Source: Deltaproteobacteria bacterium (lineage in GTDB: Bacteria > Myxococcota > Kuafuiibacteriia > Kuafuiibacteriales > Kuafuiibacteriaceae). From it: a DNA stretch of 64,000 nucleotides. Below the pieces are notes generated by a model. That model saw only the letters and a program-made list of their open reading frames with translations, was not told where the DNA came from and searched no databases. How positions within the stretch are numbered: the stretch's first letter is position 1; each line of letters starts with the position of its first letter. Positions 1 to 17,773 of this stretch are shown here, piece after piece. Where the stretch lies: positions 96,001-160,000 of the forward strand of contig JAVJQW010000022.1 in the NCBI GenBank assembly GCA_040218735.1. The letters are read 5' to 3'. Both the position numbers and the translations under genes were made by a program.

Positions 1-2558
1 CTTGGGGTCCCGCAGACGCCCCACGTCGGATCCTCTTCGACCATGAGTGGCAGGGCGTACAGAGTCGGGCGCACGGCGCCCACAGCTGTCCAGCGTCCTC
101 GCGTGTCGGACTGGATTTCCAGCATGCCTCGCTGCCTGAGCGCTTCAAGCGTCGCGGTCGTCGTCCGTTCGGATCGTTTCCCAAGGTATCGGCGCAAGAT
201 GTTCCGTGCCCTGCCGTATGCCATCCGTCCAGAGCCCTGAGATAGCGCATCCAGGAAACGCAGCTCCGGACAGTCGAGCGGCAATTGGGTCAGGTCATTG
301 CAGACTCTTCCGAGTCGATGCGCAGCCACATTGATTCGGTTCGGCACCGCAGAACCTCGATCGGAGCCCTTCACCAGCATTCCGTGAACTGCTATGCCCC
401 GTTCTAGCGAGCCGCGTGCCGGCACCAGGCCGATCGCTCCGGCGGTTTGCTCAGCGCCGCCGACCGCCAGCCGCAACTTGGCTTCGCCGAGGATTCTGCC
501 CTCTGGCGACGTCACGGACAGGGTGAACAGCCGGTCGTCGCTCTCGACCTGGAGTTCGAATGTCCTGCGAGTAGACGGTTGGAGGAAACCTGGCTGTGAA
601 GATCCACCAGCCGTGTCGGTGGTTTCGGCTATCGTGAGGCCCGGCGTTCGTATCTTGCAGCCAGGCGGAGCATCCACCTCGGCCATTGGCAGGTCGTGGG
701 CGAGATAAGCGACGCGGCCCGCTCGGCGGATGCGCAGGCCTCCAATCAGGCGGATCGCTCTTGGACGTGAAGCGCTGGGGGGTACACCGGGGAGCTGGTC
801 GCGCTGGTCAACGGTGAGTGTTGCTGCGTCCTCTAGGAAGAGCAGGCGCCAGCCGAAGGGGAGTCCTTGGCCAGGACACGTCTCGAGTTTGACGCGCTCT
901 AGGCTCACCACGTGGTCGAAGTTCCGGTTCTCGGGGCTCACCAAGAGGTAGGTCGCACCTTGGGCGGGCATCGCGTCGAGTTCGACTAGGCAGCGATGTC
1001 GGCGGCTGAACTCGAGAACGGTGAGCGGTGATGCCGCCCACGTGAGGTCCTTCCGCCGCTCCGACGGTCGGAACCCATCGTCGAAGAATACGCTGAGCTT
1101 CAACTCCGAGGTCATGAGCTCGCAGTGTGCGCTATTCGACCCATCTGGTTTTGCCACTGCATAGGCGCTGCCATCGTATGCAGCGTGCCACCGCGCAGTA
1201 CCGTACTCCAGTGTGACGCGACCATCGTCCCGGAACGAAGGCATCCGCCATCCCAGTTGCCACGGTGGGCTGTTCCCGTCCGCGAACAGCGCGATACCGA
1301 GTCGAGAGTACGCGCGATGAGTCTTCGTTGGAGCCTCTTCCTCTTCTCCGGACTGCGTGCTGCCGTCCCAGTCCAACAGGATCTGGTTGAGACGTTCGAT
1401 CAATGCGCTTCGGTAATCCTCCTGAGCCGATGCATCTCTAATGCCGCGACTCAATACGTGCTCGTCGTGGATGCGGCCAAGCACCGTCCCTACCCGATCC
1501 AGAGGCATGGGTTCCCCGGGAGTCAGCCGGAGCTTGGAGAAGAGCGTGTGCAGTTTTTCGATGTCACTCGCCCGGATGATGGACTGTGACTTGAGCATGC
1601 CAATCACGGGGCGGCCACCGAGAGTGCGCGCCTTGAAGACACCAAACTTGCCCTTCGTTTCGGCTGTCCACTTCTGAAGGTCACGCCATAGTGCGTTGAC
1701 TCTGTCTAGCTCGTTCATCCCCCAGCTGTTTGGCAGCGCCAGACGGTCTTGTGCGTGCGCGTAGAAGCCACCCTCTCCGTGTTGGTATTCGACCGAGAGC
1801 GCAACCAGCGCCGCGAGGACCGGTAGGTACGGCGGGAAGTTGTCGGAGGCGGCTCCGTAAGAAAGATGACGCGTTGGATGGATGTAGCCCTGGGGCCGGC
1901 TGGCAGCGTGCCGCCTCTGCCGCATTAACCCGAGCGCCAGGTTCGTCAGGGCTCGCCCATCCGAAAGTTTCCAAGGCGGACCGTGCTGTACGGCCTGGAG
2001 GAGACCCTCGAAGCCGCCGAGTTCGGGCGCGATATCGTCGAGCTCGGCGCGCGAGAGTGAAAACGTGACCTCCTCATCCGCCTGAGTGGGGGAGAAGAAG
2101 TCGCGGAGCAGGGCGGCGTTCCATGCGCCGAACATGTCACCTTGCTCGAAACCGTCACTTTGCGGCGAGCTTGGACTTGCGCGGTTCGTGACGATCGTTC
2201 GAACTCCAACTCCGGGAAACGGATTGCCTCCCTCCGTGATGACTTCTACGGCAATGCATTGCTCCTCTTCCTTGAGTACCAAGAGACTGGGTACGGGCGT
2301 CACGGCCTGTGAGCTGTAGGCGCGTACCAGCGCTTCGTGGTCGACGTCGCCGTCAGCGATCAGCACGATCGCAGTTGCTCCGGTGGATGTTGCCTCGGAG
2401 ATGATCTTGCCGTAGTTCTCCGGCGCCCCAAGGGCCTCGATCAGCAACCCGTTCAAGTCCAGCGCCGACTCAAGTGCGGCTATTGCCGGTTGGTATTCGT
2501 CCTTGCTCGCCGACGAATCGTCGATGCCGCCTAGTGCCTCCGACAGAAGATCGTCCAT
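1..2558 (-). CDS. Large Druantia DruH/DruF-like protein (partial, runs off left edge; alternative GTG start at 2579)
   Basis: Not in the ORF track. Manual translation shows a minus-strand frame open from 2579/2558 to base 1 (>850 aa). Motifs WNAALLRDFFSP, AVQHGPPW, PPYLPVLAALVA, LWRDLQKWT..GKFG..LGGRPVIG..SQ and IRLIGGLRI resemble my recollection of Druantia accessory subunits. It lies directly downstream of a C5 MTase. Confidence 0.6.
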   Translation of the reverse strand, partial: MDDLLSEALGGIDDSSASKDEYQPAIAALESALDLNGLLIEALGAPENYGKIISEATSTGATAIVLIADGDVDHEALVRAYSSQAVTPVPSLLVLKEEEQCIAVEVITEGGNPFPGVGVRTIVTNRASPSSPQSDGFEQGDMFGAWNAALLRDFFSPTQADEEVTFSLSRAELDDIAPELGGFEGLLQAVQHGPPWKLSDGRALTNLALGLMRQRRHAASRPQGYIHPTRHLSYGAASDNFPPYLPVLAALVALSVEYQHGEGGFYAHAQDRLALPNSWGMNELDRVNALWRDLQKWTAETKGKFGVFKARTLGGRPVIGMLKSQSIIRASDIEKLHTLFSKLRLTPGEPMPLDRVGTVLGRIHDEHVLSRGIRDASAQEDYRSALIERLNQILLDWDGSTQSGEEEEAPTKTHRAYSRLGIALFADGNSPPWQLGWRMPSFRDDGRVTLEYGTARWHAAYDGSAYAVAKPDGSNSAHCELMTSELKLSVFFDDGFRPSERRKDLTWAASPLTVLEFSRRHRCLVELDAMPAQGATYLLVSPENRNFDHVVSLERVKLETCPGQGLPFGWRLLFLEDAATLTVDQRDQLPGVPPSASRPRAIRLIGGLRIRRAGRVAYLAHDLPMAEVDAPPGCKIRTPGLTIAETTDTAGGSSQPGFLQPSTRRTFELQVESDDRLFTLSVTSPEGRILGEAKLRLAVGGAEQTAGAIGLVPARGSLERGIAVHGMLVKGSDRGSAVPNRINVAAHRLGRVCNDLTQLPLDCPELRFLDALSQGSGRMAYGRARNILRRYLGKRSERTTTATLEALRQRGMLEIQSDTRGRWTAVGAVRPTLYALPLMVEEDPTWGVCGTP

Positions 2559-3023
2559 ATCATGGTGGGTGGTGTTCACTGGCGGCGTTCGCTACGGTCA
2601 TCATTGGGGGGGGGTGTCGTTCAGTCTCCTCGATGAGGGCTCGCAGTCGATGTCGGTCTGCTTCAGGTGATCTCACTGCGCGGGGCAGCTCGGTAGACTC
2701 ATTGAGGCAGGCTTACCCCCTGTTGATTATGGGAGCAACTCGCATTGCATGCGCGCGGTGAGGCCGAATTCCGCACGCTCATTCCCATCGAGCGGCCAGG
2801 TAGATTCGCTCGCACAAGCCGGTCGGGGACATGCGCCTCTTGATGCTGGCCAGTTCTGTTTTCCGTGTTCGGTTCGTCTTGCATTGCTACACTGAGGCTT
2901 GGCCATCGGCGTCCCAAACCACTGAAAGTAGGCACCGAAGCGCCTTCTAGAGATGCCAACGCATTCTCCGTCCGGTCACGGCCTTGGCCGGTAGCTGGGC
3001 TCGTCAAGCCCGAGGTTCTCCGG

Positions 3024-4316
3024 TCAACCAGCAGCGGCTCGACGATTCTCGTTCTCACCAGACATGCGGATGATATGCTCGTCCAGTGCTGCCAAGAAGT
3101 CGTCTCTGAACCTGAGCGTGCTGCGCTTCGTGCGCTTTCGAAAGCCCTCCGTAGCTCGCAGCGAAAGGAGGCGCCCCGCACCGAGGAAGGTATGGAGGTC
3201 CTTGTAGGCATAGCACTTCGGCCACTCGGTTAGTTCGGGCGCTCGGTAGGCGCGACCTTGGCGACCCCACGCCGCAACTGGCCACCGCGCGCCAGCTGGA
3301 ATCGGCTCGTAGATCTTGGTGATCGGCGCGGCCGGTTTCCCGAGACGTTGGCCAACCCACCGCGCTACGGGGACGCTCACCGCATTCCCGGCGAGCTTCC
3401 ATCGCGGTCCGTTTCTGCGTTTGGAGTCCTCGACAGCCGGACGGGTCCAGTTGCGCGGAAAGCCTTGGAGCCGTTCAGCGTCCACCAGCTCAGGCGTGAC
3501 GATGTCACCATTTGGAAGCCAAACCGCAGGCGGGGACGGGATTCCTACCGTCGAGCCTCCCTTGAGCGTCGGAATCGCGTTGATTCCCCAGCCCAGCCCT
3601 CGGATGCCTTCGGTCCAATAGAAGCCGTAGGCGATGCGCTTGTCTTCGTCGAATGCGCGCTCACCTTCCTCGTCGGCGAACAACACGGTTCGAGGATCTT
3701 CGGTCTGCGAAGCGAGCAGGATGACACGTCGGCGGCGCTGCGGGAGACCAAAGGCACGGGTGTCGACGACGCGGTAGCACCATGTGTACCCCATGTCCGA
3801 AAGCGTGTCGGTCAGGAACCGCATCGCGCGTCCGCGCTCGAGCTGAAGCATGAAAGGGACGTTCTCGATCAGCACCCACTTCGGCCGGGGCTTCATCGTT
3901 CGCATCAAGCGAAACATGTGCGAGACGAGCCCCGACTTCTCGCCCTCGATCCCCTGCGTGCGTCCTGCCTGGCTGAGGTCCTGACACGGGAAACCGCCGG
4001 CGAGCACGTCCACAGGGGGGATCTTGGAAGCCTGCAGATCACGAACGTCGGGGTGCAGCGGAACGTCGAAATGGTGCCTAAGCACCCGGGCCGCAGACTC
4101 GTCGAACTCGCAGAGGAGCTCGGCTCGATGGCCGGCGCGGCGCATCCCGAGCTCGATTCCACCGATCCCTGCGAACAGTCCAGCGACTTTCAATGATTCC
4201 CCTCTACTAGGGAACATGCTGACCTGCGCACTTGTGGCCCCTGGCATCGGGTCACACCATATCTCGAGGTCGATGCATTTGCATTGGTGGATTCGCCGTC
4301 CCTCAAGATATGACAA
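3024..4316 (-). CDS. dcm: DNA (cytosine-5) methyltransferase, DruM-like (true start may be a downstream Met)
   Basis: C5-MTase motifs in order: FAGIGG, GGFPCQ, ENV, QRRRR, ERLQGFP, GNAV. Variable region contains GFYWTEG..GLGW..IPTLKGGS. Confidence 0.93.
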   Translation of the reverse strand: MSYLEGRRIHQCKCIDLEIWCDPMPGATSAQVSMFPSRGESLKVAGLFAGIGGIELGMRRAGHRAELLCEFDESAARVLRHHFDVPLHPDVRDLQASKIPPVDVLAGGFPCQDLSQAGRTQGIEGEKSGLVSHMFRLMRTMKPRPKWVLIENVPFMLQLERGRAMRFLTDTLSDMGYTWCYRVVDTRAFGLPQRRRRVILLASQTEDPRTVLFADEEGERAFDEDKRIAYGFYWTEGIRGLGWGINAIPTLKGGSTVGIPSPPAVWLPNGDIVTPELVDAERLQGFPRNWTRPAVEDSKRRNGPRWKLAGNAVSVPVARWVGQRLGKPAAPITKIYEPIPAGARWPVAAWGRQGRAYRAPELTEWPKCYAYKDLHTFLGAGRLLSLRATEGFRKRTKRSTLRFRDDFLAALDEHIIRMSGENENRRAAAG

Positions 4317-4788
4317 GGAGACCCGAATCGAGGTTCGAGCGCGGTGTCTTGCGACGATCGAACACGAGTGTCGACACCGTTTCCGCGGCAGAGACCGGGT
4401 CCACGTGGGCCCAGATCCGGATGACGTACCACGCCGCCCCGGCGAGCTTCTCGTTCGTGTCGCGATCGCGGCACCGGTTCGTCTCGATCTTGTCGCGCCA
4501 GAACGCCGCGTTCGCTTTCGGCCACGTCGCGTGCTCGGGGCAGCCGTGCCAGAAGCAGCCGTCCACGTAGATGGCGAGTCTCAGGCGTCGGAACACGATG
4601 TCAGCGCGACGCCGAAGACCGTCGATCACCTTCGCATCGATTCGGTAGCCGCGAACACCCAGCGCATACAGGCACCGGCGCAGCTCAAGCTCGGGGCGCG
4701 TGTCTCGTCGACGCGTCCGCTCCATTCGACGCTTTGCTTCGGGTGAAGAGGGGCGCGGCCCTCGCCGACGCGACCTCGCGTTGCTCAC
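4303..4788 (-). CDS. vsr: Very short patch repair endonuclease
   Basis: DTRPELELRR, ADIVF and VDGCFWHGCPEH motifs. GTGA overlap with the upstream gene; adjacent to the C5 MTase. Confidence 0.93.
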   Translation of the reverse strand: MSNARSRRRGPRPSSPEAKRRMERTRRRDTRPELELRRCLYALGVRGYRIDAKVIDGLRRRADIVFRRLRLAIYVDGCFWHGCPEHATWPKANAAFWRDKIETNRCRDRDTNEKLAGAAWYVIRIWAHVDPVSAAETVSTLVFDRRKTPRSNLDSGLLVIS

Positions 4789-7094
4789 ACGAACCTCCGC
4801 AGAACGTCAAGCCACCGCGTCGCGATGGCTCGTCGAGCTCCGGCTTCGAACAGAGGACCAAGGTCGAGACCGAACAGCGGACCAAGGTCGAGACCAACGA
4901 GCCACGCCGGGAGGTCGAGTGAGTCGCCGATGGGCACACCGAGAAAGAGCCCGACGCCAAGCGCGGTGTTCACCGATCCAACTCCCCCGTGCACGAAGCC
5001 CGCCTCTCCGTTCACCTGGTACCGTGCGCCGCGAACGCCGGCGCCCTCGAGCGCGAAGCTCGCTGAGGAAGCCCCGGAGACGAGGCGCGCCTCTCCCTCT
5101 ACCCTGTACGCAGCGCGGACGACGCCGGCTCCGTCGCAAACCACCAGTTCGCTGACGTCGAGCTCGCCGATCTCGAGCCCCAACCCGCCGCCCGGTCTCG
5201 AAGGCACCGGCCAGCAGCGATGCTCATGCGCCCAGTCCTCAAGACCATCGATGTCGCGAACGAAGAGTGCGCGAAGATCGGCCGGGGGCCGCGACCACCA
5301 AGGCACGACTCGCTGCGGGCCACCGAAGCCTTCCTCGGTGTAGCTGACGCTTTCCCAGTAGCGTGCTCGCTCGTGCGCCGAGGCTTGATTCGCGAGATGC
5401 ACGATCACGTCATCGAGGAACCGAACGATTGCTTCCTCGCCGATTCCCTCCCGATCCGGACCGGGCTTCAGCGGAAAAGCGCCGAGACTCGGCAAGAGCT
5501 CGCCATGCTTTCGAAGCACTTCCACATCCGCCCCGGGATAAACAGCATAGGCTCCAACCGCGCCGAGGATCGCATCGCGATATGCGTGCATTTTGGTGAT
5601 GTCCGCTGGCGGCACTCGCGTCGTTTCTTCGCCGAGTGCGTCGACCGCCCTCTCGACACGATACTTGGCGTCGAAGTGTAGACGAACAGGCGTGGTCCAT
5701 GCTCCGGCGGGCTCGAGGAGACGAACCTCTAGCGAGCAATCCGGGCGCATTGACCGCGACCAGGTGCCGTCGCCGAGCTCGTACGAGCGTTCGTACACGA
5801 GATCGAGTGCCATCCTTCGACCGAGTCGAGCGACGAGTGCCCGGACCGCGGCGCGTCGGCCCCGGCGAAGCGCAAAGTCGACGCCAGTGGTCGTCGACCG
5901 AACCAAGGACTCGACGTCGAGCTCTTGGCCCGATAGACGCGCAACGATTCCCGCAAGGCGCAGGAACACCCAATACTCGTACAGGGTCGCAACGTCCCTC
6001 TGGCCCGCGCCATAGACGTCCTCGCCGCCTTGCCATTCGAGTTGCGCGCCGACCTGCGACAGCAGGAACGCCTCGAAGAGCTCGCGATAGCCCGGGCGCC
6101 GCTCGAGGACCTGATTGCCGACCGGGAAGCGAACGAGATCCTCCACGTTCCTCAGAACCGGGTGGCGGAGTAGATCGTTGAGAACGGCGTCCACCTCTTC
6201 GGTTTCGCGAAGCCCACGATTGACAGCGGCAGGAATCCTTCTGTCCGTTCCCGTCTTCTCGGCCAGCAGCGCGTCACGAAGACGCCACGTCACCGCGCGC
6301 CACTCCTCGAGCACGAATCGCACGAACCGATTGGGGATGGAGTCGGTCGTCTCTTCGTGACGAAGACGCTCGAGATCGGCTGGCAGCATCAGTGGTTCAC
6401 GTCCTGGCCACGGCTGCTTGGGGCCGGGCTTGGCGATCAGGCGAGCGACGCGGGACGTCGCGCGCAACGGCTGTCCCGGCAGCACGGTCTCGGGGTACTC
6501 GCGCCATTCCACGTGTGGGCGAGCCAGGACTACGGCGAGCGCTCCACGGAGGCGCGTCCCCATCAGCATCGCACGTACGAGTCGGAACTGAGCGTGGAGC
6601 CCATGGGGATCGCCCAAGGTGTCGGGTCGAAGCCGTTGCTCGGTCGCGGCGAACCGACGGAGCACGAGCTCCGTCGCAACGTTCGCGATGTCTTCGAGCA
6701 TGTTCCGATAGTCGTCGAGGTAGCCGAGCTTCTTCGAACGCACCTCGACGGCGACCTCGTCCAAGCGACGTCCGCCGACCACGATGCCGATCGGGAGACG
6801 CCCGGTATGCTCACGAGGACGAAGACGACCCGTTCGGCCGGAGGCATCGTCTGCGGAGATCAGATCGTCGGGTTCGATGCGAACAGGACCCGGCAGGTCG
6901 ACCTCGTAGCGATACTCGACCCCCTCGACCAGCTGAACTGGTTCTAAGGTCGTGGGTGGGTCGGCTCGAAGATCGAGCAGAGGAGGGACTGTTGGGTTGC
7001 GATCTCGGCCGAGCACCGAGATTCGAAGGCTGCCGATTATGGCGGTGTTCGTCGGATCGACGAGCGGCAGCTCGACGTGATCGACGGGAGCCAT
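4785..7094 (-). CDS. DUF2357 / McrC-like PD-(D/E)xK nuclease
   Basis: EVRSKKLGY..DY, NRFVRF, LYEYWVF, MRPDCSL, FDAKYR and DITKMHAYRDAI motifs. Starts 3 bp after the McrB-like stop. Confidence 0.85.
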   Translation of the reverse strand: MAPVDHVELPLVDPTNTAIIGSLRISVLGRDRNPTVPPLLDLRADPPTTLEPVQLVEGVEYRYEVDLPGPVRIEPDDLISADDASGRTGRLRPREHTGRLPIGIVVGGRRLDEVAVEVRSKKLGYLDDYRNMLEDIANVATELVLRRFAATEQRLRPDTLGDPHGLHAQFRLVRAMLMGTRLRGALAVVLARPHVEWREYPETVLPGQPLRATSRVARLIAKPGPKQPWPGREPLMLPADLERLRHEETTDSIPNRFVRFVLEEWRAVTWRLRDALLAEKTGTDRRIPAAVNRGLRETEEVDAVLNDLLRHPVLRNVEDLVRFPVGNQVLERRPGYRELFEAFLLSQVGAQLEWQGGEDVYGAGQRDVATLYEYWVFLRLAGIVARLSGQELDVESLVRSTTTGVDFALRRGRRAAVRALVARLGRRMALDLVYERSYELGDGTWSRSMRPDCSLEVRLLEPAGAWTTPVRLHFDAKYRVERAVDALGEETTRVPPADITKMHAYRDAILGAVGAYAVYPGADVEVLRKHGELLPSLGAFPLKPGPDREGIGEEAIVRFLDDVIVHLANQASAHERARYWESVSYTEEGFGGPQRVVPWWSRPPADLRALFVRDIDGLEDWAHEHRCWPVPSRPGGGLGLEIGELDVSELVVCDGAGVVRAAYRVEGEARLVSGASSASFALEGAGVRGARYQVNGEAGFVHGGVGSVNTALGVGLFLGVPIGDSLDLPAWLVGLDLGPLFGLDLGPLFEAGARRAIATRWLDVLRRFV

Positions 7095-7097
7095 TCG

Positions 7098-8699
7098 TCA
7101 GTCCCAGAACGAGGCGAACTGGTTCGCGTGCAGCGCTCGAATCATGCGTCGGACCTTTCGCGCTGCGCCCGGAAGATCGGGCGCATCGATGGGGGCAGCT
7201 GGGTCGTAGACTGGAGCGTCGAGCTCGGCAACGACGTCGTTGGCGAACGCACCGACGACGCGGAGCACGGGTTCGAGAGCACGGCGAGACCCGTGGAGGC
7301 GTGGGAGGATCTTCTGGAGAACGAATAAGTCGAGTGCTTCGTGGTGGTCGCCACCAGCGATGGCCAGCAAGGCGGAGAGGCGGACTCCCTCGAAGAAGGT
7401 TCGATGCCCGAACTCGACTCCCTGCGAGGCGAGCGCGGCGTGGAGACGCCGAACGGCGGCGACGAACTCCTCCGCGAATGGCGGCGGATGATCGCGATGA
7501 TAGTCGTCGTCGCGCGCCAAGACTGCAAAGCCTCGAGCGAGCTCGCCGGGCCCAGGTTCGACGACTCCCGGTCGAGCGACGCCAGATGCGTCGGAGGGTA
7601 GAGCGTCGGTGCCGACGCGGAACTCGATAGTGTTCGCGCGGTCGAGGACTTTGGGCGACATTGCGAACGTCGTTTCGTCGACGTTCACCGTCCCGACGAT
7701 GAAGAGATTCTCCGGGAATGGAAGGGCGGCTGCCGCCCCCTCCGCACAGTACCAGTCGTCGTCGACAGCTTCGAGATTCGGGACGACTGGCGTCCTCGAC
7801 TCGATACCCGACAGCGCGTCGGCGAAGTACCGCTCGATGTGTGCGAGGTTCATCTCGTCGAGGAGGAGCAGGTACGGTCTATTGGGGTCATGGGCGGCTC
7901 TGATCACGAACTCGAGCGTCGACGGAACCACCCACGGCCGACGCCCATCATCTGCCGGAGTGCGGAGCGCATCCTCATAGCCAAAGAGGTACTCGGGGCC
8001 TGTCCAATCCGGGCGGACAGGTACGAGGAGAAGCTGGTCGTCGCCGAGCCAGCGTCCGAACTGGAGCGCCAATTGCGTCTTCCCCGACCCCGACAGGCCT
8101 GTGAGCACGACGAATCTCTTCGTCGCCAAGCTACACACGAACGCCCTCGTCAGTCGTTCATGACGAGAACCGAAATCGAGTCCGACGTCGCGGACGGCGG
8201 TCGCAAACTCTCTGGCGACGCGCGCGATGTCGACAACGGCTTCGACGTCCGCAGTCTGCTCGCGCTCCTCCTCTTGGGGCGCGACCAGTTCGACCGTCAA
8301 GCCATCGTCCAAACGCTCCTGGACGAGGCGAACCATATGGCTGCCGGGATCCGCGACTATGGTTCCGACGCGCCAACGTTGCTCGACGTCGTCATAGAAG
8401 TTGAAGATCGCGCTGGCGACTTGCCTCGACCACGTTCGGTCATGCCAGTGCTCTTTCGCCGAGCGCACGGCACGGTCATGCGTCCTCTTGTTCCGCACCG
8501 TGAGACTGAGGAGGCCGCCGCTCGCCCCCGTCGCCTGCGAAAACTTGTTCTTGAGCTGCTGGCTAGGATTCGACACAGAGGTCCCGTAGCACTTCACCAT
8601 GCCGTCATCCGCGTCCAGTAGCTCCGTCAGCCACTCTTCCAGCTCCGACGGAATTACCAGCCGATTCGCTGCGTCGACGTCCTCGGGAGACGGATGCAT
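7098..8699 (-). CDS. McrB-family AAA+ GTPase (probable start ATG 8699; ORF open to 8861)
   Basis: Walker A GLSGSGKT, VRPDW, Walker B LLLDEMNLAHIERYFAD, GTVNVDETT signature, SPKVLDRAN and QKILPRLHG. Confidence 0.9.
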   Translation of the reverse strand: MHPSPEDVDAANRLVIPSELEEWLTELLDADDGMVKCYGTSVSNPSQQLKNKFSQATGASGGLLSLTVRNKRTHDRAVRSAKEHWHDRTWSRQVASAIFNFYDDVEQRWRVGTIVADPGSHMVRLVQERLDDGLTVELVAPQEEEREQTADVEAVVDIARVAREFATAVRDVGLDFGSRHERLTRAFVCSLATKRFVVLTGLSGSGKTQLALQFGRWLGDDQLLLVPVRPDWTGPEYLFGYEDALRTPADDGRRPWVVPSTLEFVIRAAHDPNRPYLLLLDEMNLAHIERYFADALSGIESRTPVVPNLEAVDDDWYCAEGAAAALPFPENLFIVGTVNVDETTFAMSPKVLDRANTIEFRVGTDALPSDASGVARPGVVEPGPGELARGFAVLARDDDYHRDHPPPFAEEFVAAVRRLHAALASQGVEFGHRTFFEGVRLSALLAIAGGDHHEALDLFVLQKILPRLHGSRRALEPVLRVVGAFANDVVAELDAPVYDPAAPIDAPDLPGAARKVRRMIRALHANQFASFWD

Positions 8700-9164
8700 G
8701 GCGTCGAACGTACGCTGCGCCGCGGGCCGATCCACACTCGCCCCAATCGCCCAATCCTGGGGCCATGGCAATGCGGAATTGAGCAGCCGGTTGGAATGGA
8801 GCGCGGTTTCTCGTTCGGACTCGGGCTGCCACCATCCGCATCGGCTGCGTCTTCGCAACAACGCATTACGTTCGACCAGAGAGCTAGCAACAAGCGGCAG
8901 GGTCTCTGCTCGGAGAACCGCCGCGACGCGGGCGGAGGTCTGCGGTCGCCTTCGAGTCCGACTGCTTCACCGTCTGCGTCTTGCTGTCCTTCCGTCCCGC
9001 GCCGCGCAACTTCGAAACACCATCGCTCTGGCTTCAACCCGCATCCGCAGGCGATCACGGCGTCGCAGTAGGTCGCCTAGTCTGATCGCTCGCCGCGCAC
9101 CCGCGCTCGAGGGCAAGTGTAAGGGCAAGTTCAAGTTCAAGGGGCCGTTGGGCTGCGCCCTCGG

Positions 9165-11201
9165 CTAGCGCCCGTCGGTATCCGCGAGCAGCGCGTTCAA
9201 CGACGCCTCGTGCACGACCGGGACGCCGTACATCGCAGCCTGGTCGAACTCACGTGCGGCCTTCTTGCCCGCGATGAGCAAGTCCGTGCGCCGACCGACC
9301 GTCGACTGCACCAAGCCACCGCGGCGCTCGATCTCGTCGACGACGTGGACCGCGCCCAGCTCGAAGTCACCGGCGACCACGACGCGCTGTCCGAGGAAGG
9401 GCGCCGAGAACGAACGCGGGCCGTCGAGCAGCTCCACGCCCGCCTCCTTCACGCGCACGATGTCCGCGCGCGCCGTCGATGCGAGCCAACCGCGCAGCCC
9501 CTCCGCCGCCTCCGGCTCCAGGCCGGGGATGCGCGGGCAGTCGTCGGGCTCCAACGTCTCCAGCCGCTGCACCGTGCAGACGTGGTGCGCGATGAGCCGC
9601 GCCGCGTGCTCACTCACGTGCGGGATCCCGAGCAGGTACAACAGCCGCCACAACGGCATCTTCCGCGCGCGCGCCAGCTCGTCTTCGAACCGCGCGCCCT
9701 CGCCCGGCGCGATGTGATCGAGCTGCGTCGGGTCCAGCGTGAACATGTCCGCGACGTCCTTGATCGAAAACTCCGCCTGCAGTCGCTCCACCAGCCGAAG
9801 GCTCACACTCTTCAGCCGCAGCCCGCGGGGCCCGATCAGGTGAAGCAGTCGCGCACGCACGCGGCCCGGGCAGATCGCATTCGTGCACTCGGCGAACGGC
9901 GCGTCGACCGGTTGCTCCAGACCACCGCCGCACGCCGGGCACTTCGGCGGCATCGGCACCGCTTCTTCGTCGCCCTCGAGGTTCACGATCGGTGCGACGC
10001 TCCCCGGGCGCACCCGCAGCCGCGCGCCGACCTTCACGCCGACGATCGAGTGCCCCGTCTCCGTGGGGATCGGCGCACGCTCCGGCACGGGGAGCTTGTG
10101 CTCCGGCGCGCGTTGGATCTGCACCACCGGTAGCAGCGCGCCGCCGCGACCGACCGCGTGATAGACCTTCGCCGCCAACGCGGGGCGGCCCGGCGTCGGG
10201 AACACGAGCCGGACCTTCTGCGGCACTTCGCGCTCCGCCGCGCGTACGCCGAAGCCGAGTTTATTGATCTGGAGGACGGCCGCTTCCAGCGGGAACTCGA
10301 ACTTCGGCGCGATCTGCTGGAGCGCCGCCACGAAGTCGAGCACCTCCTGCAGCCCCTTGCACCGCCACGTCACCGGCAACACCGAAAAGCCCCAGCTCTT
10401 GAGCGCGCCGAGCATCTGCCAGGACGTGTCGACGCCGGGCGGCGGCTCGTCCGCGCCGAGCGCGAACAGCTTGAGCGGCCGGTTCGCCGTGACCGCCGGA
10501 TCCAGCCGACGCACCGACCCGAGCACCGCGCCCCGCGGCAATATGTAGGGGGGGTCGCCGGCGTCGACGCGGCGACGGTCGAGCGCGGTCAGGTCCGTCG
10601 CGCGCATCGCGATGACCGCGTGCACCTCCAGCGCGCCGGGGAACGGCGGCACCGGTGACAACGTCGCGGGGCCGAGGGCCTGCTTGATGAGCTTCGTCGC
10701 GCGCGACTCGGTGATGGTGCCGGGCGGGCGCAGCTTGAGGGGGACCGACGGGATGGTCCGGACGTTGTCGGTGACGTCCTCGCCCTCGGCGCCATCGCCC
10801 TTCAGCACGGCGCGTGCGAGCAGCCCGTTTTCGTAGGTCAGGACAACCTCGACCCCCGGCATCGTGGCGCTCGCGACGTACGTCGCGTCGCCGCCCTCCA
10901 CGGAGAGGACCCGCGCGTGGAAGGCCTTGAGCTCGGCGACGCTCTGGACCACGGGGAGCGACGGCCACATCCGGCGGTGCGCGTAGCGCACGAAGGCGTC
11001 CCGCGGCGTCTGGGGATCGCGCTGGGTCGGGGAGTCGACCGGGCGATCGGGGGTCTCGGCCTCGAGCCGCCGCAGCTCCTCGACCAGGTGCGCGAGGGCG
11101 CGCGGGTCGATGGCGGGGTGCTCTAGGACGAACGTCCGATGCTCGTGGTCGGCGATCTGGAGCCGCAGCTCTGCGGCGCGTTCTTCTGCCCGTGAGGCCA
11201 T
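9165..11201 (-). CDS. NAD-dependent DNA ligase (LigA)-like protein with degenerate active site
   Basis: LigA architecture is retained: DSPTQR, GDG..GEDVTDNVRTI, OB-fold VGRGG, C4 zinc finger CPAC..CTNAICP, HhH LGIPHV and C-terminal BRCT. Motif I KxDG reads TMPG. Start ATG 11201 (MASRAEERA). Confidence 0.85.
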   Translation of the reverse strand: MASRAEERAAELRLQIADHEHRTFVLEHPAIDPRALAHLVEELRRLEAETPDRPVDSPTQRDPQTPRDAFVRYAHRRMWPSLPVVQSVAELKAFHARVLSVEGGDATYVASATMPGVEVVLTYENGLLARAVLKGDGAEGEDVTDNVRTIPSVPLKLRPPGTITESRATKLIKQALGPATLSPVPPFPGALEVHAVIAMRATDLTALDRRRVDAGDPPYILPRGAVLGSVRRLDPAVTANRPLKLFALGADEPPPGVDTSWQMLGALKSWGFSVLPVTWRCKGLQEVLDFVAALQQIAPKFEFPLEAAVLQINKLGFGVRAAEREVPQKVRLVFPTPGRPALAAKVYHAVGRGGALLPVVQIQRAPEHKLPVPERAPIPTETGHSIVGVKVGARLRVRPGSVAPIVNLEGDEEAVPMPPKCPACGGGLEQPVDAPFAECTNAICPGRVRARLLHLIGPRGLRLKSVSLRLVERLQAEFSIKDVADMFTLDPTQLDHIAPGEGARFEDELARARKMPLWRLLYLLGIPHVSEHAARLIAHHVCTVQRLETLEPDDCPRIPGLEPEAAEGLRGWLASTARADIVRVKEAGVELLDGPRSFSAPFLGQRVVVAGDFELGAVHVVDEIERRGGLVQSTVGRRTDLLIAGKKAAREFDQAAMYGVPVVHEASLNALLADTDGR

Positions 11202-11364
11202 ATCCGCTTGACTAACCTCGGCGCTGGCCCCTACGTTGCCCCGCGTCACCGGGTGCGCGTGGGTCTTTCCCCTCAGGCCGCACCTGAACTTCTTACAGAA
11301 TCCGTCGAGGATGCCCCAAAGGGCCCCCTTTTCGGACCTCGAAGACCATAGGACCAACAGCGCC

Positions 11365-12828
11365 ATGGCGCAAACCAGCGGCAACCGCCGAACCAGAAAA
11401 TCCGAGGATGAGCATATGACGGGTGAGGGCACCGAAGCACCACGCCGTGGGGGCAAGAAGCGTCGTTCGACGCGTCAGAACAAGCGGCAGGACACCGGCA
11501 ACGGCAACGGCGCCGCCTACGACGAGGATGTGGACGAGATGGCCGCTTCCGCCCCGGCGGATGGGGACGGCCCCGGCCGCATGAACCTCAAGGAGCTCAA
11601 GGAGAAACGTATCTCCGAGCTCACCCGCATGGCCCGCGACATGGGCGTCGAAGGCGCGGCGGGGATGCGGAAGCAGGAGCTGATCTTCGCGGTGCTCAAG
11701 GAGCACGCGGCCCGACGCGGGACGATCTACTCCGAGGGCGTGCTCGAGTGCCTATCCGACGGATTCGGCTTCTTGCGCTCGCCCGACTACAGCTACCTCC
11801 CGGGCCCCGACGACATCTACGTCAGCCCCTCTCAGCTCCGCCGCTTCAACCTCCGCACTGGAGACACGATCAGCGGCCAGATTCGCCCCCCGAAGGACAA
11901 CGAGCGCTACTTCGCCATGCTGAAGGTGGAGAGCGTCAACTTCGAGGCGCCCGAGGTCGCGCGGGACAAGATCCTGTTCGACAACCTGACGCCCCTGTAC
12001 CCGCAGGCGCGCCTGAACCTCGAGCACAAGGGCGACAACTACTCCACGCGCATCATCGACCTGCTCACGCCGATCGGTAAGGGCCAACGCGCCCTCATCG
12101 TGTCGCCGCCGCGCGCCGGTAAGACGGTGCTCCTGCAGGACATCGCGCACGCCATCAGCGCCAACCACCCCGAGGTGTGGCTGATGGTGCTGCTGATCGA
12201 CGAGCGTCCGGAGGAAGTGACGGACATGGAGCGCTCCGTCGACGGCGAGGTCGTCAGCTCGACCTTCGACGAGCCGGCCTCCCGGCACGTCCAGGTCGCC
12301 GAGATGGTCATCGAGAAGGCCAAGCGCCTCGTGGAGCACGGACGCGACGTCGTCATCCTCCTCGACTCGATCACCCGCCTCGCGCGCGCCTACAACACGG
12401 TGATTCCGCCGTCGGGCAAGATCCTCTCCGGTGGTGTCGACGCCAACGCGCTGCACAAGCCGAAGCGTTTCTTCGGCGCCGCGCGCAACATCGAAGAGGG
12501 TGGCTCGCTCACGATCATCGCCTCGGCGCTGGTCGACACCGGCAGCCGCATGGACGAGGTCATCTTCGAGGAGTTCAAGGGCACCGGTAACTCCGAGATC
12601 CACCTCGACCGCAAGCTCATGGAGAAGCGCATCTTCCCGTGCCTCGACATCAACAAGTCGGCGACGCGTAAGGAAGAGCTCCTCCAGCCGCCGGACGTGC
12701 TCAACCGCGTCTGGATCCTCCGTCAGCTGCTGCACCCGCTGAACCCGATCGACTCGATGGAGTTCATGCTCAGCAAGCTGCGCCCGACGAAGGCCAACCA
12801 GGAGTTCCTGGACTCGATGAACAGCTGA
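11365..12828 (+). CDS. rho: Transcription termination factor Rho (start 11365 or 11416)
   Basis: [52 protein letters not shown] and FEEFKGTGN motifs. Confidence 0.98.
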
Positions 12829-13008
12829 CGGCGTCGGCCGTCGCTCCCCTCACGGCTCGCGGACATCGCCGCACGCGTCGAACGTGACGTGCGCGGCGAT
12901 CCCGCACCCACGACTTCCCGTCCAGCTTCTTGGCCACCCACACGTCGACGAGTTCGACGGGGCCGCCCTGCGCCCATTCAGACGGTCGTGGGTCGCGCTG
13001 AACGTCGC

Positions 13009-13050
13009 TGAACAATTCGATCGAAGTCGTTTGAACAATTCGTTCAAACG
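13009..13050. promoter_or_regulatory. Putative transcription-factor operator upstream of the CARDB lipoprotein gene
   Basis: Perfect inverted repeat CGTTTGAAC-N5-GTTCAAACG (13028-13050). Direct repeat TGAACAATTCG at 13009 and 13032. Confidence 0.5.
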
Positions 13051-13120
13051 GGCGCGCGTTCGTCGCTCACGCCGAGCCTCCTCCGTCGGCACGCCTCCTG
13101 CTGAGGGCGCACTCGGGAGG

Positions 13121-16100
13121 ATGCACTTGCACAAGTCGAAACCGTTCACATTCTTGCTCGGCGCCCTGTTGGTCGGCGTCGGTTGTTCCAACGAACAGGA
13201 CGCGACCGGGGTGAAGGACGACGCGATCGTCTACCAACCGAACCTCGTCGTCACGGCGCTCGAGACGCCCTACTCCGTCGCGCCCTACAACCCGATCGAC
13301 CTGACCGTCACCGTCTGTAACCAGGGCAACGACTGGGCGTCGAACAGCGACACTCTCCTCGTCGTCTCCACCGACACCACGATCACCTCGGCCGACACCT
13401 GGATCACCAGCGTCCCCACGAACAGCCTGGCCCCCGGACAGTGCGACACGCAGTCCGTCTCCTATCCGCTCCCTCCCCTGATGGACGGCGCCTATTACAT
13501 CGGCGCGATCGCGGACGAGTCGGGCTTCGTCATCGAGTCCGACGAGACCGACAACACCCTCGCGAGCGACATCATCGGCATCGGCTACGGCCCCGACCCG
13601 GTCGTCACCGCGATTTCCGCCCCGCCGAGCAGCGCGGACGGGCTCCCCGTCGTCGTCACCGTCTGCAACCGCGGGACGGATCCGGCCGGCGGCGTCGACC
13701 TCACGCTCTACCTTTCGACCGACACCACCATCGAGGACTACGCGTCGAACCCCATGTCGCCCGACTTCTTCCTCAGCGGCGACTACATCTCGAACCTCTA
13801 CCCCGGTGAGTGCACCGACCTCACGATCAACGGCTGGGTCGGCGGCCTCCCGACCGGCGCCTACTACATCGGCGCCGTCGTCGATGAGTGGAACTTCACG
13901 ACCGAGCTGATCGAGTCCAACCAGGTCACCGTCGACGGCCCCATCGGCATCGGCTGGGGACCCGACCTCGTCACCACCGCCGTCGACGCGCCCGCCGCGA
14001 CCGACGGCTACTTCGACGCCACCGTCACCATCTGCAACGTCGGCACCGACATCAGCTACGGCGCGGACGCCTCGCTCTACCTCTCCGAGGACACCGTGAT
14101 CGAGTCGCCGATGACGAACCCGATGACGACCGACATGCCGATCGGCGGCGTCACCGTCAGCTTCCTCGCCCCCGGACAGTGTGAAGACGTGACGCAGAGC
14201 TTCTGGGCCCCGACCGGCCTCGACGCGCCGTACATCGGCGTCCTCACCGACGAGTTCAACACCGTCGCCGAGCTGATCGAGAGCAACAACACGTTCGTCG
14301 GCGACCGCATCGGCGTCGGCTACGGCCCGGACATCGTCGTCGAGACCCTGACGTACCCGCCGAGCGCGGACGGGATGTTCTCGATCGTCGTGCGCGCCTG
14401 CAACCAGGGCACCGACTACACCAGCGGCTTCAACGTCGACGTCTACGCTTCGACCGACGCGACCATCGAAGGCACCTTCGCGAGCCCGTACGGCGACTAC
14501 CCGCTGGCCGGCGCCTACTTCAGCTCGCTGTACGCCGGCCAGTGCGCGCAGCAGACGGTCCAGGCCTACCCGCCGGGCCTCTTCGGACCGCACTACATCG
14601 GCGCGATCGCCGACGAGGGCGCGTCGGTCCTCGAGCTCAACGAGTACAACAACGTCTACGTCGGCGCGCCGATGGGCTTCGGCTACGGCAGTGACCTCGT
14701 CGTCTCCTCGGTCGTCGTGCCTCCGAGCGCGGACGGCCAGTTCGAGGTCGACGTCACCGTGTGCAACCAGGGCACCGCGCAGGCTTCCTACACGGACGTC
14801 GAGCTGTACCTGTCGTCGGACCTCGTCCTCTCCACGGGGCCGAGCGGATCGGACTTCCCGATCGGCGGCACCAGCTTCGCGACGCTCTACCCGATGGCCT
14901 GCGCCACGCAGTCGGTGATCGCGAACGTGTACGGCAACACCGGCCCGTACTACGTCGGCGCGATCGTCGATCCGTTCGACAGCGAGCAGGAGCTCATCGA
15001 GACCAACAACGAAGCCTTCTCGGGCATCTTCGGCGTCGGCTACGGCCCCGACCTCGTCGTCACCGCGATCGACGCGCCGCCGAGCACGGACGGTCAGTTC
15101 TCCGCCACGATCACCGTGTGTAACCAGGGCACCGCGTCCTCCTCGTCGACCGACGTCGAGCTGATCCTCACGCTCGACGACGTCATCGAGACGTACTTCG
15201 GCAACCCGTACACGCAAGACTTCCCGGCCGGCGGCGCGCCCATCCCGACGCTCAACCCCGGTCAGTGCACGAACGCCGCGATCAACGGCTACGCGCCCGC
15301 ACCGTCGCCCGCGCACTACTTGGCCGCGATCGTGGATCCCTACGACTCGATCCCCGAGCTCGTCGAATCCAACAACGATTTCCTCGGCGACCTGATCGGT
15401 ATCGGCTACGACGCCGACCTCATCGTCAGCGCGATCGCCGCCCCGCCGAGCGCGAACGGCAACGCGACCATCACCGTCACCGCCTGCAACCAGGGCACCG
15501 CCCCCTCCTCCTCCTTCGACGTCGAGCTGTACGTCTCCGAGGACCAGATCATCGAGGGGTACACGATGAGCGGCCCGCCGGTGGACACGCCGATCGGTGG
15601 CGCGTACCTGACGTCGCTCAACCCCGGCGCGTGTGCCTCGCAGGACGTGCTCGTGTGGCTCCCCGCCCCGGACGCGGCGTGGTACCTCGGCGCGATCGCG
15701 GATCCGTTCGACTCCCAGATCGAGCTGATCGAATCCAACAACACGTTCCTCGGCCCGCGCATCGGCCTCGGCTCCGGGCCCGACCTCGTCGTTCAGTCCG
15801 TCACCGGCCCGGCGAGCGCCAACGGCCCGTTCGACGTCGTCGTCACCGTCTGCAACCAGGGCACGACGTTCGCCGGCAACGCCGACGTGGAGATCTACGC
15901 GAGCGAGGACCTGAGCATCCAGACCGTGCAGCAGAACCCGTTCACCAACGACTTCCCGATCGCGTGGGCGAACTTCTCGAACCTGCAGCCCGGCGCGTGC
16001 GGGACGCAGACCACGCAGGCCGCGCCGCCGCCGTGGACGGGCGCAGGGTACCTCGCCGGCATCGTCGATCCCTACGAGGCGGTGACCGAGCTCGACGAGG

Positions 16101-17773
16101 AGAACAACGTCACGTTCGACGGCGTCGTCGGCTTCGGCAACGGCCCCGACTTCATCGTCACCGCGATCTCGGGTCCGCCGAGCTCGACGGGCACGTTCAA
16201 CCTCGCGTGGACCGTGTGTAACCAGGGCACGCAGGCCGGCGCGACCGACGTGACGCTCTACCAGTCCGACGACGCCGTGATCACCTCCGACATGCCGTAC
16301 CCCGGCGCGGGCGACACGATCATCGGCAGCATCAACGTGAGCATCAACGCCGACGACTGCGCGAGCGGCACGCTGCCCGTGAGCACGTTCGGCCAGGGCG
16401 CGTACTACCTCGGCGCGATCGCGGACGAGTACGACACGACCGTGGAGCTCATCGAGACCAACAACACGTTCGTCGGCGGCCAGATCGGCATCGGCAACGA
16501 TCCCGACCTCGTCGTCTCGAGCGTCGCGGGTCCGCCGAGCACGACCGGCTCGTTCACGATCGACTACACGGTCTGCAACCAGGGCACGACGTCGAGCCCC
16601 GGCACCGACGTGAACTTCTACCTCGTGACGGGCGAGACGCTCGTGGGTCAGGCCAACAACCCGTACGGCGATCCGCCGGTCGCGAACGACTTCGTGCCGA
16701 CGCTCCCCGCGGGTGACTGTCACATCGCGCTCACCCCGGCGTACGCGCCGCAGCCCGGTACCTATCGAATCGGCGCGATCGTCGACGAGTGGTCAGCGGT
16801 GTCGGAGCTCATCGAGACGAACAACGGGCTGCTCGGCCCGCAGATCGGCGTCGGCAACGGCCCCGACCTGATCGTCGAGAGTGTCACCGGTCCGGCCGTC
16901 ACCGGCCCGGGCGCGTACCCGGACTTCGTGGTGCGCGTGTGCAACCAAGGGACCGCGGGCAGCACCGCGACGAACGGCACGTTGTACCTGTCGAACGACG
17001 CGACGATCGAGCCGTTCGACGCGATGCTCACGCAGTACCCGGTGAACAACATCGCGACCGGCGCGTGTGAAGACGTCCTCGTGCCCGCGCCGATGCCGCC
17101 GTACACCGGTAGCTTCTTCGTCGGTGCGATCGTGGACGACTTCGACAGCGTCCCCGAGCTCATCGAGACGAACAACGCGAGCAGCGGCACGCCGATCGAG
17201 CTCGCGGCGATGTTCTGCGGGGACGGCAGCGTCGACCCCGCGACCGAGGAGTGCGACGACGGCAACGGCATCAGCGGCGACGGCTGCAGCGCGACGTGTT
17301 TCGTCGAGCACACCGTGTGGCAGGAGAACCAGTCCGGCCCCAGCCAGGGGCCGTACAACTGGAACTACGCGATGGGCTTCCACTTCACGCCGACGCGCGA
17401 CGGCGAGATCACGCAGCTGGGTGGCTACTTCTACGGTGGTCCGAAGACGGTGCGTCTGTTCGAGCGCGACACGGGTGTGCTCCTCGCCGAGACCCAGGTG
17501 GCGGGCCAGGCGAACGTCGGGCAGTTCAGCTACGGCGACATCACGACGGTGCCGGTGACGGCGGGGACACGTTATACGGTGGCGGTCTACCTCGCGGGGA
17601 CCGGCGGGACGCGCACGATCGTGAACCCGCGCTTCCCGGTGGCGTACGGCGACATCACGATCGACGCGTCGACGTACATCTATACGGGCTCGAACCCCGA
17701 CCGCCGGCCGACCAACAGCATCCCACGCGTGATGTACGGCCAGGCGGACATTCGGTACGCACCGACCGAGTGA
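13121..17773 (+). CDS. Large surface lipoprotein: 11 CARDB-like repeats, myxobacterial Cys-rich repeat, DUF4082-like C-terminal domain
   Basis: Lipobox LLVGVGC. Eleven units of PDLVV..TVCNQG..YxGAIxD..ELxExNN, then CGDG..EECDDGN..SGDGCSATC and MGFHFTP. GGAGG precedes the start. Confidence 0.85.
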   Translation: MHLHKSKPFTFLLGALLVGVGCSNEQDATGVKDDAIVYQPNLVVTALETPYSVAPYNPIDLTVTVCNQGNDWASNSDTLLVVSTDTTITSADTWITSVPTNSLAPGQCDTQSVSYPLPPLMDGAYYIGAIADESGFVIESDETDNTLASDIIGIGYGPDPVVTAISAPPSSADGLPVVVTVCNRGTDPAGGVDLTLYLSTDTTIEDYASNPMSPDFFLSGDYISNLYPGECTDLTINGWVGGLPTGAYYIGAVVDEWNFTTELIESNQVTVDGPIGIGWGPDLVTTAVDAPAATDGYFDATVTICNVGTDISYGADASLYLSEDTVIESPMTNPMTTDMPIGGVTVSFLAPGQCEDVTQSFWAPTGLDAPYIGVLTDEFNTVAELIESNNTFVGDRIGVGYGPDIVVETLTYPPSADGMFSIVVRACNQGTDYTSGFNVDVYASTDATIEGTFASPYGDYPLAGAYFSSLYAGQCAQQTVQAYPPGLFGPHYIGAIADEGASVLELNEYNNVYVGAPMGFGYGSDLVVSSVVVPPSADGQFEVDVTVCNQGTAQASYTDVELYLSSDLVLSTGPSGSDFPIGGTSFATLYPMACATQSVIANVYGNTGPYYVGAIVDPFDSEQELIETNNEAFSGIFGVGYGPDLVVTAIDAPPSTDGQFSATITVCNQGTASSSSTDVELILTLDDVIETYFGNPYTQDFPAGGAPIPTLNPGQCTNAAINGYAPAPSPAHYLAAIVDPYDSIPELVESNNDFLGDLIGIGYDADLIVSAIAAPPSANGNATITVTACNQGTAPSSSFDVELYVSEDQIIEGYTMSGPPVDTPIGGAYLTSLNPGACASQDVLVWLPAPDAAWYLGAIADPFDSQIELIESNNTFLGPRIGLGSGPDLVVQSVTGPASANGPFDVVVTVCNQGTTFAGNADVEIYASEDLSIQTVQQNPFTNDFPIAWANFSNLQPGACGTQTTQAAPPPWTGAGYLAGIVDPYEAVTELDEENNVTFDGVVGFGNGPDFIVTAISGPPSSTGTFNLAWTVCNQGTQAGATDVTLYQSDDAVITSDMPYPGAGDTIIGSINVSINADDCASGTLPVSTFGQGAYYLGAIADEYDTTVELIETNNTFVGGQIGIGNDPDLVVSSVAGPPSTTGSFTIDYTVCNQGTTSSPGTDVNFYLVTGETLVGQANNPYGDPPVANDFVPTLPAGDCHIALTPAYAPQPGTYRIGAIVDEWSAVSELIETNNGLLGPQIGVGNGPDLIVESVTGPAVTGPGAYPDFVVRVCNQGTAGSTATNGTLYLSNDATIEPFDAMLTQYPVNNIATGACEDVLVPAPMPPYTGSFFVGAIVDDFDSVPELIETNNASSGTPIELAAMFCGDGSVDPATEECDDGNGISGDGCSATCFVEHTVWQENQSGPSQGPYNWNYAMGFHFTPTRDGEITQLGGYFYGGPKTVRLFERDTGVLLAETQVAGQANVGQFSYGDITTVPVTAGTRYTVAVYLAGTGGTRTIVNPRFPVAYGDITIDASTYIYTGSNPDRRPTNSIPRVMYGQADIRYAPTE

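Follow-up and report, generated by a model that had tools for sequence, protein, structure and literature searches.

The 64,000-nucleotide stretch of DNA analyzed here (the window; positions 96,001 to 160,000 of contig JAVJQW010000022.1, assembly GCA_040218735.1, from a Deltaproteobacteria bacterium placed by GTDB in the Myxococcota) carries, beside rho, a gene for a full-length homolog of the NAD+-dependent DNA ligase LigA in which the catalytic residues are replaced. This protein, designated pseudo-LigA, belongs to a conserved family. Our best overall explanation, which we regard as reasonably probable, is that pseudo-LigA is a LigA-derived pseudoenzyme, that is, a displaced ancestral ligA with a non-catalytic DNA-binding role. 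The gene lies as follows.

9165..11201, minus strand: pseudo-LigA coding sequence, 678 aa plus stop; uninterrupted frame, LigA homolog below the family cut-offs, confident AlphaFold2 model

The open reading frame (ORF) starts with an ATG at 11201 and ends with a stop codon at 9165-9167. An alternative, longer reading starts from a TTG at 11456; the N-termini of relatives line up with the ATG. An earlier sequence-only reading of the window had described the gene as an uninterrupted ORF with native codon usage that encodes LigA at full length, its scaffold present and its catalytic motifs erased. This description stands: the frame is open over 678 aa, the GC content at third codon positions (GC3) is 0.92, compared with 0.90-0.94 in rho and other native genes and 0.70-0.77 in the adjacent defense-type genes, and the loss of the catalytic apparatus is seen both in alignment and in counts over 61 family members.

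Pseudo-LigA matched Escherichia coli LigA (2owo) in phmmer with E 1.8e-63. A Pfam scan detected DNA_ligase_aden (1.7e-38), HHH_2 (7.9e-7), and, weakly, BRCT (0.0034), and gave no match to the OB and zinc-finger models. The general NCBIfam LigA models aligned end-to-end at scores below both cut-offs, 297.1 bits against 444.45 for TIGR00575 and 306.8 bits against 369 for NF005932, which leaves the protein outside LigA membership by score. It also scored far below the cut-off of the LigB model NF005987 (52 against 498 bits) and has a BRCT fold besides.

Catalytic and cofactor-binding residues are replaced throughout the family

The domains of pseudo-LigA and the remnant of motif I were located as follows.

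10992..11201, minus strand: domain Ia remnant, residues 1-70; Tyr/His/Asp for binding nicotinamide mononucleotide (NMN) replaced, family motif EHRxxVLExP
10242..10991, minus strand: nucleotidyltransferase (NTase) domain, predicted to be dead, residues 71-320; remnants of motifs I, III, and IV, insert at residues 160-186, RGDGxxGEDVTxN retained
10854..10871, minus strand: motif I remnant SATMPG in place of ExKxDG, residues 111-116; from the 2owo alignment and family counts
9957..10241, minus strand: OB-fold domain, residues 321-415; motif V Lys lost (V333), motif VI reads RVRPGxVAP, fold confidently predicted
9852..9956, minus strand: Cys4 zinc finger, residues 416-450; C421, C424, C439, C444
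9417..9851, minus strand: HhH domain, residues 451-595; fold kept, hairpin glycines mostly replaced, HHH_2 7.9e-7
9168..9416, minus strand: BRCT domain, residues 596-678; fold kept, canonical T610, R617, S650, and K651 lost

All motif strings quoted in the sequence-only reading were found in the protein and could be placed by alignment with 2owo: the domain Ia string TFVLEHPAIDPRALA at residues 23-37, SATMPG at 111-116, EVHAV at 192-196, EAAVLQ at 306-311, VRLVF at 330-334, and RPGSVAP at 398-404. In motif I, T113 falls on K115 of the E. coli enzyme, S111 on E113, and P115 on D117. In motifs III to V, V196 falls on E173, E306 on D285, Q311 on K290, and V333 on K314. In domain Ia, T23, F24, P33, L36, and A37 occupy the positions of Y22, H23, D32, Y35, and D36, and the residues expected for NMN binding are missing.

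These replacements were counted in an alignment of 61 full-length family members. The motif I Lys (K115) was present in 0/61, the column holding T in 45, R in 5, W in 5, A in 3, and V, G, and Q in one each. The motif I Asp (D117) and Glu were each found in a single member, and the motif III Glu (E173) in none. The motif IV Asp remained in 8/61, with Glu instead in 48, and the Lys residues of motif IV (K290) and motif V (K314) in 1/61 each. The D36 equivalent was kept in one member and the adenine-site Tyr column in two. In the domain Ia columns for NMN that are conserved enough in canonical LigAs to be scored, the canonical residue occurred in 4/61, 9/61, 6/61, and 1/61 members.

Passages of two published papers (PMC8123306, PMC10504179) name K115, D117/G118, E173, R200, K290, and D36 as essential or as NAD+ or metal ligands, and name likewise the Deinococcus radiodurans equivalents of E113, R136, K314, D283, and D285. 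With the adenylated Lys gone, together with the remaining ligands of AMP, NAD+, and metal in motifs I, III, IV, and V and the domain Ia residues that bind NMN, pseudo-LigA is predicted to be incapable of classical three-step ligation.

The family is conserved and under purifying selection

In a large protein collection, the family comprised 67 clusters at 90% identity (390-1504 bits), all of which come from metagenome-assembled genomes (MAGs) of Myxococcota, and the next match was a canonical LigA at 308 bits. Family loci in the genome collection also came from MAG records (9/9). A profile search of 1.84 billion representatives at 50% identity returned 12 members scoring no less than 586 bits, with a gap from there to the next match at 391. 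All five members newly found by this search are without the Lys, and all six full-length matches examined below the gap have KxDG. Separately, one otherwise canonical LigA representative, P0148 (KFDG, RGDG, VRGE, AYKF), reads DGAVVIVD at motif IV, with Ile replacing the Lys.

The GTDB class of the host contains 20 species in one order and one family. Close homologs of pseudo-LigA, with 36-90% identity, were detected in 12 of the 20, and no stop codon was found in the gene across these 12 genomes. The family alignment has 56 invariant columns plus clade-specific motifs. Its family motifs are EHRxxVLExP in domain Ia, DLTALDRRRVDAG, PLEGG, FPxPGR, and RVRPGxVAP, and residues 160-186 hold a likewise conserved insert of about 24 aa.

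We estimated the ratio of nonsynonymous to synonymous substitution rates (dN/dS) by the Nei-Gojobori method between this genome (G000) and its congener G001, a single pair with 90% amino-acid identity and dS 0.52. The value for pseudo-LigA was 0.133 over 678 codons, the lowest among its domains being 0.068, for the dead NTase; in this genome pair, the working LigA gave 0.162 over 487 codons. We conclude that pseudo-LigA is a conserved family under purifying selection, limited to one uncultured class-level lineage of Myxococcota. The sequence-only reading had named two outcomes that would speak against a retained non-catalytic scaffold, namely demonstrated ligase activity, or a lack of orthologs sharing the substitutions together with a dN/dS near 1. 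Neither appeared: orthologs are missing the catalytic residues throughout the 61 members, and a dN/dS of 0.13 is far from that of a decaying copy.

Neutral decay, with the gene on its way to becoming a pseudogene, would fit the very long stem of the family in the tree described below (2.17) and the deletion of the gene in 8 of the 20 species. It is difficult to reconcile with a frame that is open in 12/12 genomes and in 67 clusters down to 36-40% identity, with a dN/dS as low as that of the working LigA, with the invariant columns and clade motifs, and with a confident AlphaFold2 model, and we consider it highly improbable. An enzyme with non-canonical chemistry, that is, an NTase or ligase using another nucleophile or cofactor, also seems improbable to us. 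The position of the nucleophile is variable across the family, the ligands of motifs III, IV, and V, the adenine-site Tyr, and the NMN residues of domain Ia have been lost together, and literature searches gave no precedent, although constraint within the protein is strongest in the NTase domain (dN/dS as above) and new invariant polar residues are present in the family (H21, E27, R209, R211, D213, K268, E286, D289).

A second LigA lineage and the origin of pseudo-LigA

The sequence-only reading had suggested looking for an intact ligA elsewhere in the genome. The genome (11.6 Mb, 70 contigs) indeed contains one other LigA, which is of a different lineage, at G000:C59:79431-81665 (448.8 bits, above the cut-off). 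Its motifs are intact (KLDG, RGDG, VRGE, DGLVVR, AFKF), with Arg at the position of the motif IV Lys and about 100 aa inserted after domain Ia. Arg at this position is common among related sole LigAs of small genomes. Orthologs of this working LigA (54-100% identity) were found in 19 of the 20 class genomes, and G012 has a different intact LigA.

Some minor observations concern these genes. An aspartokinase-like gene lies downstream of the working LigA, and the class-LigA match in G014 holds one in-frame TAG. Two LigA-like matches were seen in several genomes of the phylum (G038, G042, G078, G090, G124, G126, G130, G132, G138, G069, G089, and G112), some of them within frames that stay open for 1070-1160 aa. 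Duplication and turnover of LigA seem to be common in Myxococcota.

Pseudo-LigA is closer to the LigAs of other Myxococcota families (29-33% identity, E to 1e-77) than to the working LigA of its own genome (23%, E 1e-11). In a tree of 50 rows (IQ-TREE quick, LG+C20 PMSF), the Myxococcota LigAs formed two lineages, for which we use our own labels, type 1 and type 2. Type 2 includes the working LigA of the class, with 98 and 99 in the Shimodaira-Hasegawa-like approximate likelihood ratio test (SH-aLRT). The pseudo-LigA clade has a support of 100 and a stem of 2.17 changes per site, and it groups with type 1. A clade of pseudo-LigA and the class LigA, a grouping chosen after the first tree had been seen, was rejected by the approximately unbiased (AU) test, run under LG+G4 with 26 of the 50 rows (delta lnL 61.45, p 0.00024). 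Long-branch attraction would, if anything, draw these two branches together.

The gene that accompanies pseudo-LigA in the window is as follows.

11236..12828, plus strand: rho, with Pfam Rho_N, Rho_RNA_bind, and ATP-synt_ab; likely marks the ancestral ligA position

Following the suggestion to compare synteny with rho and with defense genes, we examined related loci, choosing genes by conservation of ORFs. The divergent pair of rho and pseudo-LigA was conserved in 11/11 loci with enough flank (the G001 contig is too short), and the defense-type genes of the window were present in none of 10 related loci. rho also lies divergently beside an intact type-1 LigA in 11 of the 17 genomes examined from family f3, in G149 of family f9, and, 2.4 kb away, in G071 of family f14. 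By comparison, it was beside type-2 LigA in 0/30 loci and was not seen next to LigA in the remaining families examined. Because the position at rho matches that of intact LigA in three other Myxococcota families, pseudo-LigA is likely to be the positional ortholog of an ancestral rho-linked ligA, displaced and repurposed, and not a spare duplicate.

In five class members without pseudo-LigA, its usual flanking genes directly adjoin rho, and tblastn found no remnant of the gene in those five species (best E 1 or worse). Moreover, two species without pseudo-LigA are nested among carriers in the subtree of the class LigA. These results point to secondary deletion as the cause of the absence of pseudo-LigA from class members.

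The LigA fold is retained with remodeled surfaces

Comparison of an AlphaFold model with LigA, which had been proposed in the sequence-only reading, gave a confident LigA fold. With the family alignment as input, AlphaFold2 returned a mean predicted local distance difference test score (pLDDT) of 92.7 and a predicted template modeling score (pTM) of 0.92, and the best Foldseek matches of the model were LigA structures (E 4.6e-54 to 1e-35). Residues 1-337 superposed on the adenylation domains of LigA (1b04, 4lh7, 1ta8, 3uq8) with Z 28-29 and a root-mean-square deviation of 1.8-2.2 A over 306-312 residues. Full-length LigA of Thermus filiformis (1v9p) aligned to the model across 541 residues, and residues 598-677 aligned with the BRCT domain of RFC1 in 7u1a (Z 11.4). 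The architecture Ia-NTase-OB-Zn(Cys4)-HhH-BRCT is thus present, and the alignments with LigA structures span model residues 1-597.

We then asked which conserved positions of LigA persist, using 53 canonical LigAs and the 61 family members. Of 162 columns conserved in at least 90% of the canonical set, a column was counted as kept when the same residue occurred in at least 80% of the family. By this measure, 7/21 columns were kept in domain Ia, 23/52 in the NTase domain, 9/30 in the OB domain, 5/9 in the zinc finger, 5/30 in the HhH domain, and 9/20 in the BRCT domain. Features retained in the family include RGDGxxGEDxTxN, the Arg of the OB GRxGA loop (R352, 61/61), the G..P of motif VI, and the zinc ligands, each of the four Cys being present in 61/61 members. 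The R208 equivalent (R231) was retained in 48/61, and the R487 equivalent was half kept (30/61). The start of the HhH domain carries an Arg-rich segment, GRARARLLHLxGPRG. The mean net charge of the family is -0.2, compared with -14.9 for canonical LigA, and the mean isoelectric point is 7.5 compared with 5.8. The folds are thus retained and the surfaces remodeled, with canonical residues eroded and the charge shifted. The earlier statement that the DNA-binding domains are kept was right for the folds and the Cys4 site and did not hold for the canonical functional residues, such as those of the HhH and OB domains, the hairpin glycines, and the BRCT Thr, Arg, and Ser-Lys.

A possible role in DNA binding

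Because RGDGxxGEDxTxN, R352, R231, and the Cys4 site are retained and the charge is less acidic, there is a hint of DNA binding, which is plausible for pseudo-LigA and cannot be assumed. The jobs suggested in the sequence-only reading (nick binding, decoy, or regulation) are thus candidate roles. We propose the following course of events. The type-2 LigA would have taken over nick sealing, and the rho-linked type-1 copy would have been released from catalysis. The released copy may then have evolved fast before it was fixed in a new role, and it would have been deleted cleanly in 8 of the 20 species. The new role would be non-catalytic binding of a particular DNA structure, such as a nick, a gap, or an end, through the RGDG/GEDVTxN surface of the NTase domain, the OB loop Arg, the zinc finger, and new Arg-rich segments, with the protein acting as a sensor, shield, or scaffold and not as an enzyme. 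That the role is non-catalytic and probably structure-specific DNA binding is put forward tentatively, with doubt slightly uppermost. A bolder version, which strikes us as distinctly unlikely, would make pseudo-LigA the first "pseudo-ligase" of bacteria, its LigA shell serving as a dedicated non-catalytic reader of nicks, gaps, and adenylated ends that marks or shields them or recruits other factors. The family would then also represent a surviving intermediate stage in which a paralog takes over from an essential replication enzyme.

In the main rival reading, the protein would have lost nucleic-acid binding and would serve as a protein-protein adaptor or regulator, with partners such as the working LigA, enzymes of base excision repair, the replisome, or RNA polymerase/Rho. 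The features of canonical DNA contact are eroded in the HhH, OB, and BRCT domains, the pTM of 0.92 is suggestive of domains held rigidly in a defined arrangement, and many family-specific invariant surface residues are present, including W261, W518, W572, and the insert at 160-186. A published study (PMC7530888) reports a LigA-XthA complex in mycobacteria, and a gene of the exonuclease-III family (EEP) lies 0-5 kb away from pseudo-LigA in relatives. On the other hand, no operon partner is conserved: the sole conserved neighbor is rho, whose adjacency is older than the loss of catalysis, and the genes for the EEP protein and for a cyclic nucleotide monophosphate (cNMP)-binding protein near pseudo-LigA persist in genomes without it. 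The retention of Cys4, R352, and RGDG/GEDVTxN and the less acidic charge also fit nucleic-acid binding better, and we judge an adaptor of this kind to be possible but unlikely.

Several points weigh against the reading of pseudo-LigA as a displaced ligA with a DNA-binding role. On the side of function, most of the conserved OB columns are lost (9/30 kept), and the HhH hairpin Gly residues remain in only 3/61 (q465), 6/61 (q467), and 1/61 (q562) members, and that of the third hairpin in 24/61. Only 6/61 members keep the R277 equivalent and about half of the family (31/61) the R200 equivalent, and the BRCT pocket residues T610, R617, S650, and K651 are kept in 0-2/61. The dN/dS comes from one genome pair only, more distant pairs being saturated, and 8 of the 20 species do without pseudo-LigA, so its role is dispensable. 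On the side of origin, the link between the pseudo-LigA clade and type 1 has an SH-aLRT of only 82 on a very long stem, the AU test was post hoc and on a subset of rows under LG+G4, and adjacency to rho is missing from many type-1 loci.

Comparison with known systems

Pseudo-LigA shares with LigA (TIGR00575/NF005932; 2owo, 1dgs, 1ta8) the order of six domains, the fold, the Cys4 site, RGDGxxGEDVTxN, and the OB GRxGA Arg, and with the LigAs of other Myxococcota its genomic position beside rho. It differs from LigA in being without the KxDG Lys, the motif III Glu, and the Lys residues of motifs IV and V, and in the replacement of the NMN residues of domain Ia, the HhH Gly residues, and the BRCT pocket. 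The type-2 LigA of the class shares its genome and overall architecture with pseudo-LigA but is only 23% identical to it and has intact motifs, the insert of about 100 aa, a place in the other clade, and no rho neighbor.

LigB of the E. coli type (NF005987) is likewise a second, divergent LigA-like paralog beside a working LigA. LigB is shorter, has no BRCT domain, and is missing two of the four Cys, while the catalytic Lys and weak activity are kept. Unlike LigB, pseudo-LigA has the full length, with Cys4 and BRCT present and the Lys lost. Another parallel is the trypanosome AdoMetDC prozyme, a full-length paralog that has lost catalytic residues and is kept by selection. According to PMC5201418, the prozyme activates its active paralog as a heterodimer; no sign of such pairing was seen for pseudo-LigA.

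Full-text literature searches, which also covered LigA in Myxococcota, turned up no account of a LigA that is catalytically dead yet conserved and under selection. Few bacterial enzymes are as conserved and essential as LigA, which is also a drug target. Under the proposed history, a second LigA lineage can take the place of an essential replicative ligase in function, and the gene so displaced can be retained for a different use. The family also provides at least 61 natural sequences that have the LigA fold apart from its catalysis, which should be useful for asking what the non-catalytic surfaces do. Its members are annotated as "DNA ligase (NAD+)" by JGI and as hypothetical by NCBI, and counting them as ligases would mislead inference of metabolism or of essential genes.

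Neighboring genes

The region of the window downstream of pseudo-LigA contains a run of defense-type genes, which form a McrBC/DruF-like island.

3-2579, minus strand: DruF-like protein
3024-4316, minus strand: C5 cytosine methylase (Dcm)
4303-4788, minus strand: Vsr
4785-7094, minus strand: DUF2357+PDDEXK_7 McrC-like nuclease
7098-8861, minus strand: AAA protein, PADLOC PDC-M26A

The sequence-only reading had placed pseudo-LigA just upstream of this island in the same orientation and had allowed that the adjacency may be coincidental. Pseudo-LigA is co-oriented with the run and lies 303 bp upstream of the AAA gene, and the genes of the island are defense-like, an arrangement that would suit pseudo-LigA as a component of the defense system. 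Yet the ORFs of window positions 1-9164 have no counterparts in the 10 related pseudo-LigA loci, their GC3 (0.70-0.77) departs from that of pseudo-LigA (0.92), and the sole PADLOC match of pseudo-LigA was a weak one to BRCT. Membership in the defense island is thus very hard to credit. From the absence in related loci and the foreign GC3, we conclude that the island is a foreign insertion specific to the locus of this genome and that the adjacency is coincidental, as had been suspected.

In relatives, the 3' neighbor of pseudo-LigA is often a stand-alone cNMP-binding protein of about 150 aa. Its gene abuts the 3' end of pseudo-LigA in four relatives.

L034:8537-8977: cNMP-binding gene
L035:11042-11479: cNMP-binding gene
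L036:11018-11485: cNMP-binding gene
L037:8513-8986: cNMP-binding gene

In genus g7 the gene runs in the same direction as pseudo-LigA and overlaps it by 4 bp, in g4 and g6 the two are convergent, and in species without pseudo-LigA it adjoins rho. The cNMP-binding protein was rejected as a conserved partner, since its orientation varies and it stays in genomes that have no pseudo-LigA. The exonuclease-III-family gene within 0-5 kb in related loci persists in the same way where pseudo-LigA is absent.

On the other side of rho, the plus strand at 12884-17773 encodes a 1629-aa protein with 11 CARDB repeats, DUF4215, and DUF4082, which is without counterpart in related loci. Rho itself is extended N-terminally of Rho_N by about 115 aa with many Arg and Lys residues, and candidate starts are ATG codons at about 11365 or about 11416.

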